From the NCBI GenBank assembly GCA_963782055.1, contig CAWAIF010000003.1:4800001-4864000 (forward strand): a DNA stretch of 64,000 bases. Reading direction: 5' to 3'. Under the pieces are notes generated by a model. It worked only from the letters and a program-made list of their open reading frames with translations, searched no databases and was not told the origin of the DNA. Source of the DNA: an uncultured delta proteobacterium (lineage in GTDB: Bacteria; Myxococcota_A; Polyangia; Polyangiales; Polyangiaceae). This document shows positions 6,482-21,347 of this stretch, one piece after another. The position numbers and the translations under genes are program-made. The stretch's first letter is position 1, and every line of letters starts with the position of its first letter.

Positions 6482-7108
6482 TCAGGGCGGCTTCGGCAGG
6501 ATGACCTTCTGCCCGGGCTTGACGCCGTGGCGGCGCGTCCAGCCGGCGTTGACCTCCAGCACGTAGCGCGAGGGGCAGCCGACGCTGCGCGTCTCGTCGT
6601 TGAGCGTGGGCGCGTTCTCCACCACGCCGACGATGGTGCCGTCCTCGTCGATGAAGAGCATGTCCAGCGGGATGCAGGTGTTGTGCATCCAGAAGGTGTG
6701 ATCGCTCCGGTCCTCGAGGAAAAAGAGCATGCCCCTCTCCTCCGCCATGTGCGTGCGGAACATGAGGCCGCGCTCCGTCTCCGCGGGGGTGCGCGCGAGC
6801 TCGGCGTCCACGGAGGCGCCGGTGTCGGGGAACTTCACGGGCATGACGGGCACGAAGGGCGGCCCTCCCTCGGGGTCTTTCGGACAGTGGGCGGCAGGCT
6901 TCGGCGCGGGCGAGGCGACCGGCGCCATCGGCACCACGCACGACGGCGTGGACGGCGCAGGGCCATGGGGCGAGGCGGCGGCGGCCGCGCCCGTCGCCGC
7001 GGGAAGCACGACCGCGCTCGCCGGCGGCGGTGGCGGCGGCTCGTCCGGCGCGCGGTTGCACCCGCAGAGCGCCAGCGAGCCCAACAGCAGCAGTCCGGCC
7101 CGACGCAT
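6482..7108 (-). CDS. DUF192-domain lipoprotein
   Basis: RGLMFR, GMLF, FWMHNT.IPLDMLFID and YVLEVNAG motifs. Confidence 0.92.
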   Translation of the reverse strand: MRRAGLLLLGSLALCGCNRAPDEPPPPPPASAVVLPAATGAAAAASPHGPAPSTPSCVVPMAPVASPAPKPAAHCPKDPEGGPPFVPVMPVKFPDTGASVDAELARTPAETERGLMFRTHMAEERGMLFFLEDRSDHTFWMHNTCIPLDMLFIDEDGTIVGVVENAPTLNDETRSVGCPSRYVLEVNAGWTRRHGVKPGQKVILPKPP

Positions 7109-7138
7109 GGCAGGGGCTTTAGCCGAAAACGCCGGGGG

Positions 7139-7200
7139 ACAAAAGTAGAACGGCATCGCGCGGAGGCCCGGGGGGGGAGAGCCATCCTGCGCGATGCCGA
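7139..7200 (-). ncRNA. Candidate sigma54-dependent small hairpin RNA (or attenuator) with U-C8 loop
   Basis: Perfect 11-bp stem 7151-7161/7189-7199 plus inner pairs, loop UCCCCCCCC, followed by UUCUACUUUU; begins ~12 nt after a sigma54-type promoter. Confidence 0.55.
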
Positions 7201-7210
7201 ACTTCCTCTT

Positions 7211-7227
7211 AGCGAGGACCGTGCCAA
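7211..7227 (-). promoter_or_regulatory. Sigma54 (-24/-12) promoter
   Basis: TTGGCACGGTCCTCGCT has GG-N10-GC and matches TGGCACG-N4-TTGCW with 1 mismatch. Confidence 0.7.
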
Positions 7228-7325
7228 TCCGAAGTGCTGGAAATCTGGTGCGTGTCGCCGCGTGGCGTTTCACCCCTGCAAGGGCGCAATTTCACGTTTG
7301 AACACCAGCACCACTTGCCCACAGG

Positions 7326-8255
7326 TTATGCCCGCAAGCTGCGGACGCCCGCCTGGTGCACTTTGCCCGGGAGCATTCGCCCCACGATGCTCTCGGCGGC
7401 CTTGCCCGCCTCCACCAGACGCTCCAGGTCGATGCCCGTCTGCACGCCCATGCCGTGGAGCATGTAGACGAGGTCTTCGGTGGCGACGTTGCCCGCGGCG
7501 CCCGGCGCGTAGGGGCACCCGCCCATCCCGCCCACCGACGCGTCGAAGTCGCGGATGCCCATCTCCAGCCCGACGAGGACGTTGGGCAGGGCGGTGCCGC
7601 GCGTGTCGTGCATGTGCATGGCCAGCTTGGGCGCGGGGATCTCCGCGAGCATCATCCCGATGATCCGGCGTGTCTGCAGGGGCGTACCGACGCCGATGGT
7701 GTCTCCCAGCGACACCTGGTAGCAGCCCATCTCCAGCAAGGTCCGGGCGATGGAGAGCGCGCGGCGCGGATCCACCTCGCCCTCGTACGGGCAGCCCCAG
7801 ACTGTCGACACGTAGCCCCGGACGCGCAGGCCCGCCTCCCGCGCCGGGCCGATGGTCGCCTTGAAGGCTTCCAGCGTCTCGGCGATGGTCTTGTTGACGT
7901 TCTTGCGGTTGTGCGTCTCGCTGGCGCTGAGAAAGACGGCGATCTCGCTCAGGCCGGCGGCGCGCGCGCGCTCGAGGCCACGCGCGTTGGGGACGAGCGC
8001 GGAGTAGACCACCTTGCTCGAGTGCGGGAGCCGCTGCGCCTCGCGCGCGACGTCGTCGGCGTCGGCGAGCTGGGGAATCCACTTGGGCGAGACGAAGCTG
8101 GTGATCTCAATCCGCTCCAGCCCCGCGGCGGTCAGCGCCTCGATGAGGCGGAGCTTGTCGCCCAGGGGCACGGTGACCTTCTCGTTCTGGAGGCCGTCGC
8201 GGGGGGAGACCTCGTAGATGGACACGCGGTCGGGCAAGGTCTCCAGGAAGGCCAT
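7326..8255 (-). CDS. Hydroxymethylglutaryl-CoA lyase
   Basis: EVSPRDGLQNE, HMHDTRG and GGCPYAPGAAGNVATED motifs. Confidence 0.95.
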   Translation of the reverse strand: MAFLETLPDRVSIYEVSPRDGLQNEKVTVPLGDKLRLIEALTAAGLERIEITSFVSPKWIPQLADADDVAREAQRLPHSSKVVYSALVPNARGLERARAAGLSEIAVFLSASETHNRKNVNKTIAETLEAFKATIGPAREAGLRVRGYVSTVWGCPYEGEVDPRRALSIARTLLEMGCYQVSLGDTIGVGTPLQTRRIIGMMLAEIPAPKLAMHMHDTRGTALPNVLVGLEMGIRDFDASVGGMGGCPYAPGAAGNVATEDLVYMLHGMGVQTGIDLERLVEAGKAAESIVGRMLPGKVHQAGVRSLRA

Positions 8256-8389
8256 GAGCACAGGGTTCGCTCTCGGGCCTGGCCCGTCAACCCCGTCGCC
8301 GGCCGCACCATGCCGGGCTCTGCCGAGCCCTTCGCGACCAACACACCCAAATGTTTTCGCCGCGGCCCGCTCGCCGTATCCTACAGGTC

Positions 8390-9217: not shown

Positions 9218-10141
9218 ATGACTCGCTCGACATGGATCCCCTTCATCGTCGGCCTCGTCGCGGCGGCGTGCGGAGGCTCTGGCAGCACCGACGTGACCCC
9301 CGACCAGGCCTGCACCGACGCCGCGACCACCCTGTGCAACAAGATCGACAGCTGCTCGCCGCTCTTCATCCAGCTCCAGTACGGTGACGCCGCCACGTGC
9401 ATCGCCCGCGCGAAGCTGAGCTGCACGCAGAACCTGGCGACGCCCGGCACCAGTGACACGCCCGCCTTCATCGAGGGCTGCGGCAACGCGTACGGCAGCC
9501 TCTCGTGCGCCGACGTCTTCGGCATCGCGGCCAACCCGCCGGCGGCCTGCCAGGCCGCGCCAGGCACCGTGGCGAACGGGGGCGCCTGCGGCGTCAACGA
9601 CCAGTGCCAGAGCACGGCGTGCAAGATCGACGGGACGACCGGGTGCGGCACATGCGCGGTGCGGGCCAACTCCGGTGAGTCGTGCGCCAACGGCGTCCCG
9701 TGCGCCGTGGGCCTGACGTGCGCCGGCAACCAGACGTGCGTCACGCCGGGCGCGCTGAACGACGCGTGCGACGCGGCGAGCAAGCCGTGCAAGGGCGGGC
9801 TCGTCTGCGACGGCGGCACGTGCAAGACGCCGCAGCCCGCGGGCGCGCCCTGCACCGGCGCCGGCACGGGCAACTGCGACGGCACGCAGGGGCTCTACTG
9901 CAGCAACAGTCAGTGCAAGCAGGCGCTCACCGCGAAGGCCGGCCAGACGTGCGGCATCGACCTGCAGGCGGGGACGTACACCGCGTGCACCGGAGGCTCG
10001 GTGTGCACCTCCAACAACGTGTGCAGCGCGGTCGCGGCCGACGGCGCGGCGTGCGACGACACCAAGGGCCCCACGTGCCTCGCCCCCGCGCGCTGCATGT
10101 CCGGCATCTGCACGGTGGTGAACCCGGCGAGCTGCAAGTAG
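9218..10141 (+). CDS. Cys-rich secreted lipoprotein
   Basis: Lipobox AAAC; dozens of spaced Cys in G.aC repeats. Confidence 0.85.
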   Translation: MTRSTWIPFIVGLVAAACGGSGSTDVTPDQACTDAATTLCNKIDSCSPLFIQLQYGDAATCIARAKLSCTQNLATPGTSDTPAFIEGCGNAYGSLSCADVFGIAANPPAACQAAPGTVANGGACGVNDQCQSTACKIDGTTGCGTCAVRANSGESCANGVPCAVGLTCAGNQTCVTPGALNDACDAASKPCKGGLVCDGGTCKTPQPAGAPCTGAGTGNCDGTQGLYCSNSQCKQALTAKAGQTCGIDLQAGTYTACTGGSVCTSNNVCSAVAADGAACDDTKGPTCLAPARCMSGICTVVNPASCK

Positions 10142-10165
10142 GCCTCAGGGCCAAGGAGATCCCCC

Positions 10166-11120
10166 ATGATGCGCGCCACCCTCACTGGACTCGCCCTCGT
10201 CGCCCTGGCCGCGGCGTGCAGCAGCGGCGACAGCACCGGGAACGACGCCGGCGCTTCGGTCACGCCGGACCAGGCGTGCACCGACGCCGCGACCGCGATC
10301 TGCAACAAGCTCTCCTCGTGCTCCCCGCTCTTGATCCAGGGCGTCTACGGGGACGTGGCCACGTGCATCACGCGCACCAAGGTGAGCTGCGGGCACAACC
10401 TCGCCGCGCCGGGCGCCGGCGACACCCCCGACTATGCCGAGGGGTGCGGCAAGGCGTACGCGACGCTCTCCTGCGCCGAGCTGCTGGCCGGGTCGTACGA
10501 CCCGCCCGCGGCGTGCCGCCCGCCGGCGGGGACCGTCGCCAACGGGGGCGCGTGCGGCATCCCCGACCAGTGCCAGAGCGACGGTTGCAAGATCGACGGG
10601 ACCACGGGCTGCGGCACCTGCGTCCCGCGGGCGAAGCCGGGCCAGTCCTGCGCCGGCGGCATCCCGTGCGACTACGGCGCAGTATGCGCCGGCACCGCGG
10701 GCAGCGAGATTCTGCGTGCCCCCCGCGACCTCCGGCGCGGCGTGCGACGCCAACAAGCCCTGTGTCGCCGGCCTGGTGTGCGACGCGGGCAAGTGCGCGA
10801 CGCCGCAGCAGGAGCAGGCGGCCTGCACCGGCCCGGGCGTCGGCAACTGCGACGCCGCGCAGGGGCTCTTCTGCGACGCCGGGGGCAAGTGCCGGAAGGC
10901 GCTCACCGCCGGCGCCGGACAGAAGTGCGGCTACGATCAGCAGTCCGGCGACTTCACCGCGTGCCTCGGCGGCGCCACGTGCGACGCCACCGCCATGACG
11001 TGCACCGCGCCCGCGGCCGACGGCGCGGCGTGCGACCTGACGAAGGGGCCCGGGTGCATGGCCCCGGCGCAGTGCCTCTCCGGCACGTGCACCATCGTCG
11101 ACCCGGCGACCTGCAAGTAG
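10166..11120 (+). pseudogene. Tandem paralog of the Cys-rich lipoprotein with a +1 frameshift near 10703-10709
   Basis: Shares VTPDQACTDAAT and CKIDGTTGCGTC; the paralogous C-half continues in the next frame to ...VDPATCK*; span 955 = 3n+1. Confidence 0.75.
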
Positions 11121-11130
11121 CCGATCCCGG

Positions 11131-12630
11131 CTACACGCCGATGAGACGCATCTGTCGCTTGTGGTGCGTGGGGGGGACGAAGGGGATGGCGTACTGCCCG
11201 GAGAAGCACGCGTGGCAATACCCGCAATCCGCGGGATCCCCCGCGGGTCTGCCCGCGACCGCGGCGATCATCCCCTCCAGCGAGAGGTAGCCGAGCGAGT
11301 CGGCTGTGACGTACCGCGCGATCTCGTCGACCGTGTGGCTGGAGGCGATGAGCTCGCGGCGGGTGGGCGTGTCGATGCCGTAGTAGCAGGGCCACTGCGT
11401 GGGCGGGCTGGAGATGCGCAGGTGCACCTCCCGCGCGCCGCAGTCGCGCACCATCTTGACGATCTTGCGGGAGGTGGTGCCGCGGACGATGAAGTCGTCG
11501 ATGACGACCACGCGCTTGCCGCGCAGGACCGGCGCCACGGGGTTGAGCTTCAGGCGCACGCCGAAGTGGCGGATGGACTGTTGCGGCTCGATGAAGGTGC
11601 GCCCCACGTAGTGCGAGCGGATGAGCCCCATCTCGAAGGGGATGCTGAGCGCCTTGGCGTAGCCCACCGCGGCGGGGACGCCGGAGTCGGGGACAGGGAT
11701 GACGACGTCGGCCTCGACCGGCAGCTCGCGCGCCAGCGCCTCGCCCAGCGACTTGCGCACCTCGTACACGCTGCGGCCGCCGATGTGGGAGTCGGGCCTC
11801 GCAAAGTACACGTACTCGAAGATGCACATGTGCGGCGACGCCGTCTCCGGGAGCCGCAGGGAGCGGATGCCGGAGGCGTCGATGATGAGCAGCTCGCCCG
11901 GCTCCACGTCACGCACGTACTCCGCGCCGATGAGGTCGAAGCTCGTCGGCTCGCTCGCGATGACGTGCGCGTCCCGCTGGCCGGGCAGGATGCCGAGGCA
12001 CATGGGGCGGATGCCCATCGGGTCGCGGGCGGCGACGATGGTGTCCTCGGTGAGGAAGAGCAGGGAGTAGGCGCCCTTCACGCGCGCGAGCGCATCGACG
12101 ATGCGGTCCTCGATGGCGACCTGGTGGCTCAGCGCGACGAGGTGGACGAGCACCTCGGTGTCGGAGGAGGACTGGAAGATGGACCCGCGCTCCTCCAGCT
12201 CGTCGCGCAGGGCGTCGGCGTTGGTGAGGTTGCCGTTGTGGCAGACGGCGAGCGACCCGCGCGCGTAGTCCACCGCGAAGGGCTGCGCGTTCTTGATGTG
12301 CGAGCCACCCGCGGTGGAGTAGCGCACGTGGCCGATGGCGATGCGGCCGGGCAGCCGCGCGAGGTGCGACTCGCTGAAGACGTCCTGCACCAGGCCCATG
12401 GCGCGGTGGAGGTAGAGCTGCTGCCCATCGCTCGAGACGATGCCGGCCGACTCCTGCCCGCGGTGCTGCAGGGCGTGCAGGCCGAGGTAGGCGAGGTTGG
12501 AGGCCTCGGTGTGGCCGTAGATGCCGAAGACACCGCACTCGTCATGGAAGTGGTCGTCCTCTTCCTCGTGCCTGAAGGGCGCGCGGGCGGGCGACGGGGA
12601 GTCGTCCAGGACGACGAGATGGCGGCGCAT
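11131..12630 (-). CDS. purF: Amidophosphoribosyltransferase
   Basis: Propeptide then [35 protein letters not shown] and CYYGIDT. Confidence 0.97.
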
Positions 12631-12824
12631 CAACGCCGTCGCTTTAGCACGTTCTCCAGGGCGACGGAGCCGACGCCCACCAGGACGCCAATGGACACGG
12701 CCGAGACGTACCCGCCGAAGGCGGAGCCGCAGCAGCCGGCGCAGGCGCCGGGGCACGCCAGCGCGGTGGCGGAGACGCCGAGGCCGGTGGCGAGTGTGGC
12801 GAGGCCGACGAACAGCTTCCTCAT
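12630..12824 (-). CDS. Small Cys-rich membrane protein (64 aa), stop overlaps the purF start
   Basis: Signal-like N-terminus ending [13 protein letters not shown], then a TM segment and KRRR; TGATG overlap. Confidence 0.65.
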
Positions 12825-12981: not shown

Positions 12982-13590
12982 TCATCCCGGTGGCGCCACG
13001 AGCGCATGGCTGCGGTCGAGCTCGCGCCGGCGCTGCTCCTCGCGCGCCTGGGCGCGGCGGGCTCGGTCGAGGTCCCGTCGCACCCAGGCCCCGCACTCGG
13101 TCAGCCGGTCGAGCTCGGCCTGGTCGCCGAACCCGTGCCGGATGCGCATGCAGAGCGCCTCGAGGTGCCTGCGCGCGCTGGCGCACCGCCGCGCATCGGG
13201 CCAGCGCCGCTCACCCGGCGCAAGCGCGCCGTCCAGCGCGAACCCCACGTGCCCCACGAGCACGAGCCCGTAGTACGCCCGCCGGATACGCCGGCGCCCT
13301 TCCGGCGTGAGCGCGACGAGCACCTCGCGCCCGACCCTCCGCCGCGTCACGAGCCCGATCGTCTCGAGCGCCCGCATCATCTCGCTGATCGTCGCCCGCG
13401 CCACCCCGAGCCCTCGGCGCAGATCACTCTGGTAGTGCGCGCACCCGTTCCCGAGCCGGTAGAGCGCGTCGAGCACATCGAACCGAGCCGCCGTCAGCCC
13501 CATCGCCCGAAGCGCCCGCCGAGTGAGCCGGAGCGTCGCGTAGTACGCCCGCTTGATCGTGAAGAACACCGGATCCAGTCCCGCCATCAT
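12982..13590 (-). CDS. MarR-like winged-helix protein, copy A
   Basis: GLTAARFDVL...QSDLRRGLGVARATISEMMRALETIGLV...VALTPEGR; about 79% identical (hand count) to 46852-47415. Confidence 0.8.
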   Translation of the reverse strand: MMAGLDPVFFTIKRAYYATLRLTRRALRAMGLTAARFDVLDALYRLGNGCAHYQSDLRRGLGVARATISEMMRALETIGLVTRRRVGREVLVALTPEGRRRIRRAYYGLVLVGHVGFALDGALAPGERRWPDARRCASARRHLEALCMRIRHGFGDQAELDRLTECGAWVRRDLDRARRAQAREEQRRRELDRSHALVAPPG

Positions 13591-13602
13591 CCCCACCCCC
13601 AA

Positions 13603-13618
13603 AGCACCCCCCATGCCA
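13603..13618 (-). promoter_or_regulatory. Sigma54-type promoter of MarR-like copy A
   Basis: TGGCATGGGGGGTGCT (GG-N10-GC); the -12 C lies 14 nt before the ATG; same site conserved in copy B. Confidence 0.6.
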
Positions 13619-20798: not shown

Positions 20799-21347
20799 AT
20801 GCTCTCGAAGCGTTCGATCGCGTTGCCTCGGCACGTCTCTCTCGCCCAGGTGGCCGACGCCTCGCGAGACGCGGTGCGTGCATTCCTCGAACTGGACGCG
20901 ACCAAGCCGACGCTGGCGGCGTGGCTGCGCGGCCCGTACCGGGAGGCGACGCGCTTCGGGCCGCGACGGATGGTGACGCCGCCCAGCGAGGGCAACACCG
21001 AGCCGCGCGGCGCCATCGTCGCCGCGGCGCAGGCGGAGGTGACCGCGGCGGTCCGCATGGCGCTCGCGGCGCGCGCGACCGAGGATTTGGTGCGCAAGCT
21101 CCCGCCGGTGGTGCACATCGTCCCCGCGCACGACACCTCCGGGGCCCGGGGGTTCGTCCCGATCGACGCGCAGGGCGGGCGCCTGGCGGACAGGGTGATC
21201 GCCCTGGTCCTCGCCGACTACCTCACGCGCCCCCGCGACTTCGTCGCGCGGCCGGTGCTGGCGGAGGACGTCCGTCCGCCGCACAAGCGGGCGGTCGCGC
21301 AGAACGCGCCGACGCAGCCGCAGATGCCGGCGGTGCGCCGCAAGTGA
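20799..21347 (+). CDS. Hypothetical protein, paralog of 35139-35858
   Basis: Shares WLxGPYR and L.DRV..LV..D.L.RP motifs with the paralog. Confidence 0.65.
   Translation: MLSKRSIALPRHVSLAQVADASRDAVRAFLELDATKPTLAAWLRGPYREATRFGPRRMVTPPSEGNTEPRGAIVAAAQAEVTAAVRMALAARATEDLVRKLPPVVHIVPAHDTSGARGFVPIDAQGGRLADRVIALVLADYLTRPRDFVARPVLAEDVRPPHKRAVAQNAPTQPQMPAVRRK

Follow-up and report, generated by a model that had tools for sequence, protein, structure and literature searches.

An uncatalogued sigma-54 gene for a predicted small RNA with a poly-C loop in Polyangiaceae, probably a minimal relative of Pxr

Pxr (Rfam RF01812) is the textbook case of a recently arisen small RNA (sRNA) that controls multicellular development, and it gates the formation of fruiting bodies in Myxococcus. 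Its gene lies downstream of pxrK-pxrR (PxrR/PxrK = Nla19, MXAN_1078/1077). PxrR is essential for Pxr synthesis according to the sections of the Pxr literature that treat its regulation (PMC10217877 among the sources). With a C-to-A change in its loop, Pxr loses its function even though Pxr-S continues to be produced, as stated in the portions of PMC5684412 and PMC5568312 devoted to it. The passages on phylogeny in PMC5684412 and PMC8538405 place the origin of Pxr in the Cystobacterineae, and its direct targets are given as still uncharacterised in the relevant part of PMC11928866.

Other described systems share single features with the RNA reported here. The Qrr, CrcZ and GlmY/GlmZ systems likewise have several sRNA genes under one NtrC-type activator; they depend on Hfq or RapZ, and show no sequence or structure relation to our RNA, for which no Rfam match was returned. 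The Csr/Rsm decoy RNAs carry repeated GGA loops, whereas the loop here is U-C8 and the sole GGA lies in the stem. Among GlmY/GlmZ homologues, both sigma-54 and sigma-70 promoter variants are reported (PMC3045617), as in the present family. Also comparable are the cuckoo RNAs of Alphaproteobacteria (RSs0680/CcsR, ar14), in which, as described in the pertinent part of PMC4615179, a constant C-rich loop is combined with variable stems, a variable number of hairpins and paralogues. Their loop, however, reads CCUCCUCCC and is repeated in 2-4 adjacent hairpins, whereas our RNA has one hairpin, a pure C-run and no match to the Rfam models; moreover, transcription of RSs0680 is from an RpoH promoter and the RNA binds Hfq (same part of PMC4615179), unlike the present case with a sigma-54 promoter and no Hfq found. 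The RepG RNA of Helicobacter pylori also bears a C/U-rich loop on its terminator hairpin, and pairing of this loop with a G-repeat takes place there, the loop being enough for repression, but RepG comprises two stem-loops and has no homologues outside Helicobacter, as far as the account in the relevant part of PMC8295292 goes. In contrast, our RNA has no Rfam match even at E 10, and no conserved G-repeat target was found for it.

The locus resides on the minus strand of the window (the whole stretch of DNA analysed, 64,000 nucleotides), in the gap between an HMG-CoA lyase and a DUF192 gene (Table 1; gene calls come from our own codon-based caller, and their starts are approximate). The sigma-54 box, the long hairpin, the exposed C8 loop and the U-rich end described by the initial annotation are all confirmed by sequence and folding, while the two palindromic activator sites (7304-7267) were omitted from that description. 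The box TTGGCACGGTCCTCGCT at 7227-7211, with its GG at 7225/7224 and its GC at 7213/7212, departs at a single base from TTGC, the consensus of the -12 element of sigma-54 promoters, and its spacing leads one to expect +1 at ~7201-7199. The 63 nucleotides 7201-7139 fold at -34.9 kcal/mol (z = -6.45), none of 200 shuffles being as stable. The stem (7199-7151) contains two single-base bulges, both on the 5' side, and the nine bases of the loop, U7178 followed by C8 (7177-7170), are all unpaired in the structure prediction. Activator sites 1 and 2 are centred 72 and 50 nt upstream of the -24 GG, respectively. A consensus scan of positions 6900-7500 reports no terminator, its loop limit being 8 for a loop of 9, and no sigma-70 promoter, so that the separate -10-like box formerly ascribed to DUF192 is unsupported by that scan. 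Rfam analysis, the Pxr model RF01812 included, matches no family in the window at the gathering cut-off or in 6900-7500 at E up to 10, in keeping with the view that the RNA is unannotated, and a tRNA/tmRNA search of the window returns none. Hfq was found in none of five genomes, the same search being positive in 5 of 14 controls.

Table 1. Features of the hairpin RNA locus and its neighbours (window positions).
Feature	Position	Strand	Basis
Sigma-54 -24/-12 promoter box	7211..7227	-	sequence reading; fixed spacing kept in relatives; rpoN found in source genome
Predicted small RNA, ~60 nt	7139..7201	-	ends inferred from promoter spacing and U tail
19-pair stem, also the predicted intrinsic terminator hairpin	7151..7199	-	folding and covariation
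Loop U-C8, likely functional site	7170..7178	-	all unpaired in prediction; C-run kept
U-rich tail UUCUACUUUU	7141..7150	-	sequence; alignments A2 and A3 retain it
Upstream activator site 1, palindrome TTKCR-N4-YGMAA	7289..7304	.	17.5 bits with family-promoter matrix; predicted PxrR-orthologue site
Upstream activator site 2	7267..7282	.	15.7 bits, same family-promoter matrix
HMG-CoA lyase, upstream neighbour, outside RNA	7326..8261	-	PF00682; PRK05692 above cut-off
DUF192 protein, downstream neighbour, signal-peptide-like start	6482..7108	-	PF02643

A DNA search with 261 bases around the hairpin returns matches in 11 of 60 relatives (6/6 within the genus), every one of them confined to query bases 112-208, which correspond to the promoter and the hairpin; together with the covariation found, this bears out the conservation of promoter and stem, which had been proposed as a check. 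A promoter-plus-loop pattern run over the genome collection yields 75 matches, of which 55 were judged real, 19 were attributed to chance and one (L052) was set aside as uncertain; one of the loci, L067, failed the tail filter and was retained by eye. All 55 real matches come from records titled Polyangiaceae, Polyangiales, Sorangium, Myxococcales, Myxococcota or delta proteobacterium. In an unfitted alignment of 56 distinct sequences, whose loop and upper-stem columns are fixed by the search pattern, 93% of the cells are paired and 10 of the 19 pairs have changed on both sides. Alignment A3, fitted to a covariance model, comprises 103 matches from 100 examined loci, mostly higher-scoring ones (101 matches with the C-loop, the two others kept in the pair count only); here 93% of the cells are paired and 18/19 pairs have changed on both sides, which none of 500 shuffles equals, against 37-48% paired in slid-register controls. 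With the RNA-only covariance model R1 (E up to 0.05), 114 of 151 family genomes give matches, as many as nine in a single genome; the weaker matches may be plain terminators, as these reach 36 bits; the window RNA, itself part of the R1 training set, scores 75.9 bits. A second copy in the source genome (G000:C2:438687-438750) has its own sigma-54 box. A C-run of 7-11 is found in 145/145 non-redundant copies, a set pre-filtered for at least C6. The hairpin RNA unit is thus conserved with strong covariation across the Polyangiaceae, Sorangium included, with two copies in this genome. Read from sequence, it presents itself as a real, uncatalogued sigma-54 sRNA gene, and the hairpin is very probably transcribed as a free RNA.

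The promoter was assessed independently of the RNA model, using only copies outside the training set. A strict sigma-54 box at the right spacing precedes 55 of these 89 copies vs 0.14% of random positions, and a loose one 66 of 89 vs 5.4%. This result and the covariation back the earlier proposal that the sRNA stands alone, is sigma-54-driven and exposes a C-loop. No sigma-54 box is seen for 23 of the 145 copies, most of which look sigma-70-like by eye. The box-less copies (L158, L161, L166-L171, L176, L179, L182-L190, L200, L205-L212) have lost the -24 box and belong mostly to one paralogue subfamily, and two relatives, L165 and L169, seem to hold both promoter types in overlap. An IHF-like site lies between enhancer and promoter in 16 of 122 regions (at most one mismatch to the consensus) vs 1.6 in shuffled ones, a modest enrichment; it is not counted as part of the window locus because it shows three mismatches here.

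Alternatively, the hairpin may act in cis, by terminating the HMG-CoA lyase mRNA or, as a leader, by hiding the DUF192 start codon; we hold this to be very improbable. The hairpin with its U tail does lie 125 nt past the lyase stop, and DUF192 is the downstream gene of 56 copies, 15 of them with an in-frame ATG in the 3' arm and five without an alternative start after the tail. Against this, the hairpin is preceded by a promoter and an enhancer of its own, 51 of the 56 DUF192 genes offer a start beyond the tail, and the reading frame through the hairpin is not maintained. Furthermore, 31 of 109 copies have a divergent gene upstream, 31 of the 123 downstream genes called are convergent, and the paralogues adjoin unrelated genes: the neighbours belong to many unrelated Pfam families (62/109 upstream and 61/123 downstream proteins scanned), with several syntenic subfamilies (lyase/DUF192, proC, hemE, DUF2400, hemD and others). 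None of the 145 copies overlaps any called gene. At the window locus, the DUF192 frame is open through the hairpin and offers an in-frame ATG at 7156-7154, within the 3' arm. In several genomes of the genus (the window; L004-L006), the DUF192 signal peptide must begin in or just after this arm, and the RNA gene therefore overlaps the beginning of the protein gene. Since the frame enters the hairpin and five of the 56 orthologues have no post-tail start, read-through into DUF192 may matter locally in the genus, without explaining the RNA family; a secondary cis effect on DUF192 within the genus is possible.

Besides a free-standing promoter, the family possesses an enhancer. The motif TTTC-N6-GAAA is present in 42 of 122 family upstream regions vs 0.0 in shuffled ones. 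A palindrome matrix trained only on family promoters, with no Pxr promoters, exceeds 12 bits in 121 of the 145 family promoters (its own training set) and reports 2-3 sites of 15-24 bits upstream of 11/11 Pxr genes, over a background of 40 sites that pass 12 bits across the entire 7.58 Mb genome. Of its 214 intergenic strict boxes, only those of the two RNA copies are accompanied by a palindrome site; a relaxed box (1158 in the genome) adds four palindrome-bearing cases, two of them borderline and one located before a small response-regulator gene that immediately follows the PxrR orthologue. This orthologue (G000:C3:5418419-5419774) shows 54% identity with PxrR (462 bits vs 367 for the next best), has the recognition helix S[PS]TTLWRKM in common with it, and groups with seven PxrR sequences at 100% SH-aLRT vs 40 other activators in a quick tree of 48 rows; the orthology test is one-directional. 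The orthologue is found in 6/6 RNA-bearing genomes tested and also in seven genomes without a detected RNA, and is not found in three others likewise without one. From these sequence comparisons, the PxrR orthologue is quite likely the activator of the hairpin RNA. Among the papers listed in the literature searches, none concerns a PxrR binding sequence.

No clear PxrK orthologue is seen next to the PxrR orthologue, the best PxrK match being elsewhere, and the 520 nt downstream of the PxrR orthologues hold no C-loop RNA in 9/9 cases read. At G000:C3:5419827-5420338 (L291), a palindrome and a sigma-54 box follow the PxrR orthologue immediately and precede a single-domain response regulator, an arrangement that occupies the place of pxr in Myxococcus and recurs in similar form in L272, L323, L327 and L328. 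The palindrome-plus-box pattern is returned by 34 of 401 genomes of the phylum, with reversed controls also in ~20; outside the order, in other classes of the phylum, the matches mostly precede protein-coding genes, among them genes that we take to resemble YeeE, persulfide dioxygenase and rhodanese (L262, L266, L267, L280-L282). A further 18-bit palindrome with a variant sigma-54 box stands before a small ORF and divergent from another activator gene (G000:C3:4995449-4995600, plus strand), which suggests a second activator with a similar site.

By sequence, the window RNA shares with Pxr a sigma-54 promoter and the palindrome upstream of it, its genome encodes a PxrR orthologue, and both RNAs have a poly-C loop (U-C7 in Pxr, U-C8 here) on a bulged stem, a U-rich 3' tail and paralogues. 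Unlike Pxr, with 108 nt and three described stem-loops, it has ~60 nt and one hairpin, its C-loop sits on the terminator hairpin itself, it is flanked by HMG-CoA lyase and DUF192 rather than lying downstream of pxrK-pxrR, it has no RF01812 match, and it occurs in Polyangiales, outside the group of origin stated for Pxr in the parts of PMC5684412 and PMC8538405 cited above. The RF01812 model gives 114-129 bits on 4/4 true Pxr loci tested (gathering cut-off 80 bits), the true loci being 11 metagenome contigs with the published probe; it returns no match in the window, in 6900-7500 (E up to 10), in the source genome or in relatives at their loci. Nor does it exceed the cut-off in any genome set searched, these samples holding no Pxr-bearing genome, and the Pxr probe pattern is found in 0/301 genomes of the phylum, a sample without Pxr genomes that cannot map the absence of Pxr. 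Conversely, our own covariance models yield 10-12 bits on the Pxr SL1 apex, which is not significant, and models R1/R2 16-24 bits on SL3. Ordinary terminators reach 36 bits with the models (21 of 28 outgroup-order genomes matched, the 15 read being ordinary terminators), and the SL3 matches were therefore rejected as evidence of homology. Covariance models thus report no significant RNA-level cross-match with Pxr in either direction.

If Pxr is read from its promoter, it can form one long C-loop hairpin followed by the terminator, with SL1 extended to 22 pairs that are 100% paired and show two compensatory changes, both in one sequence, vs 93% paired and no such change for the Rfam SL2; this refolding is drawn from 11 close sequences. 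At these loci (L093-L103), the 11 conserved nt that precede the Rfam 5' end are able to pair with the part shown as SL2. The long stem starts ~12 nt past the -12 GC, as in the window RNA. The alternative fold gives a weak indication that the two architectures are closer than drawn, and the alternative pairing may be relevant to Pxr-XL/L/S processing.

A real sigma-54 C-loop sRNA could also have arisen independently of Pxr, from a terminator that came under a PxrR-type promoter, with shared regulation and convergence accounting for the likeness. The lack of a significant cross-match between the covariance models fits this account, as do the distance of ~611 kb between the window RNA and the PxrR orthologue, the use of the palindrome by coding genes and the frequency of C-rich loops among sRNAs (PMC4615179, in the part on such loops). 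It is nonetheless unlikely, because the likeness extends to four features at once, namely activator, enhancer, promoter class and the U-C7/8 loop, because RNAs with two hairpins from other families of the order look like Pxr SL1 plus SL3, and because the long stem of Pxr begins at the same distance from the -12 GC. On sequence grounds, common descent with Pxr appears the probable origin of the hairpin RNA, which falls outside RF01812 but probably belongs, as a minimal member, to a wider Pxr superfamily. As control signals and the likely activator are common to both, Pxr is probably one branch of an older, wider family. The initial annotation spoke of a 'Pxr-analogous' regulator, a term that is supported and probably an understatement given the common enhancer palindrome and activator orthologue. 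The papers listed in the literature searches include none on such an RNA in Polyangiales.

Across the order, the three-part pattern of palindrome, box and C6 is present in 100 of 300 genomes (one of which, G646, is flagged unpublished and counted in the tally only) and in 11 of 20 families, with no reversed-control match. The 70 loci read from it specify RNAs with 1-3 hairpins, most of whose loops are C-runs. In several of them, a C-loop hairpin precedes a terminator whose base is of the GCGGCC type, as in Pxr, and L353 displays the Pxr apex plus one extra C. Outside the order, C-loop terminator hairpins were noticed at L220, L221, L224, L227 and L052, with a sigma-54 box at the usual spacing only in L052; L221 exhibits a Pxr-SL3-like stem with a C7 loop, and L227 two C-loop hairpins. 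We tentatively consider, with somewhat less than even confidence, that Pxr, rather than having arisen recently in the Cystobacterineae, is one branch of an ancient myxobacterial module, in which a PxrR-type sigma-54 activator acting on TTKCA-N4-TGMAA drives one to nine small RNAs with a poly-C loop as their sole constant feature and of which the 60-nt hairpin is the minimal form, possibly able to replace Pxr in Myxococcus and to gate development in Sorangium. If the hairpin RNA is a true relative, the origin of Pxr would be pushed back, across Polyangiales, its functional core would be reduced to a poly-C loop on a stable stem, and a concrete PxrR binding site for M. xanthus and a minimal natural allele for complementation would become available. 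Sorangium, a major natural-product producer, has several copies, and the module may thus be a handle on its growth-to-development switch.

Regarding function, the PxrR orthologue likely switches on the hairpin RNA via the enhancer palindromes and the sigma-54 box, and a trans-acting RNA of ~60 nt is likely made from this self-contained gene unit. Its C-loop is predicted to pair with G-rich mRNA stretches, without Hfq. The single hairpin would combine the roles of Pxr SL1 (C-loop) and SL3 (terminator, stability), and a part in gating development is possible. We give about an even chance to what we consider the best reading, a stand-alone, PxrR-activated and Hfq-independent sRNA of the Pxr superfamily whose C-loop likely pairs with G-rich mRNA; for base-pairing as the mode of action, taken alone, we lean in favour. 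The G7 run pointed out earlier before the ATG at 20799 is present, but as a target it is missing from the two closest orthologues. The target scan suggested with it brought no standout in a genome-wide duplex ranking, the duplex scores hardly exceeding the antisense control (57 vs 41 at -23 kcal/mol, 7 vs 14 at -26). G-runs show no enrichment ahead of start codons after one repeat family is taken out (G6 33 vs C6 46, 3857 genes). Two further candidate targets were rejected, the G7 of gspF, kept in 1/21 orthologues, and the G7-8 of a repeated MarR-like family, which lies upstream of the family's own sigma-54 box and is thus probably not transcribed. This MarR/ArsR-like HTH gene family, represented in the window at 12982-13614 (minus strand), occurs at ~58 places genome-wide (60 tblastn pieces), nearly all preceded by a G6-11 run and, close to the probable true start, by a sigma-54 box of their own. 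With 17 matches in one genome of the genus and 0-1 in four others, it has the appearance of a promoter-plus-regulator unit that expanded specifically in this genus.

The main rival to pairing is a protein decoy, with the same gene and control, in which the RNA titrates an oligo-C-binding protein. Such sponges are known, since the CsrB/RsmYZ and the sigma-54-driven CrcZ RNAs titrate their proteins. Across the family, the accessible C-run is the only fixed feature, flanks and stems varying widely; there are 1-3 hairpins per RNA and up to nine RNAs per genome under one predicted activator; and the G-run, duplex and orthologue checks found no conserved G-rich target, the direct targets of Pxr being themselves given as uncharacterised (relevant part of PMC11928866). 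We nevertheless rate the decoy as rather unlikely: a homopolymer seed can pair with variable G-repeats, as in RepG. The cuckoo RNAs follow the same modular pattern of constant C-rich loops, variable stems, 2-4 hairpins and paralogues, and yet their loops are anti-Shine-Dalgarno-like (PMC4615179, in the part describing them).

Two further observations concern the remainder of the window. The PRPP-binding motif of PurF proteins usually reads DDSIVRG, and the purF-like gene at 11131-12636 (minus strand) has DDFIVRG instead, either a variant or a sequencing error. On the plus strand, 9218-11290 harbours two tandem genes for Cys-rich repeat proteins, the second of which seems to be split over two frames (10166-11290 and 10434-11120).
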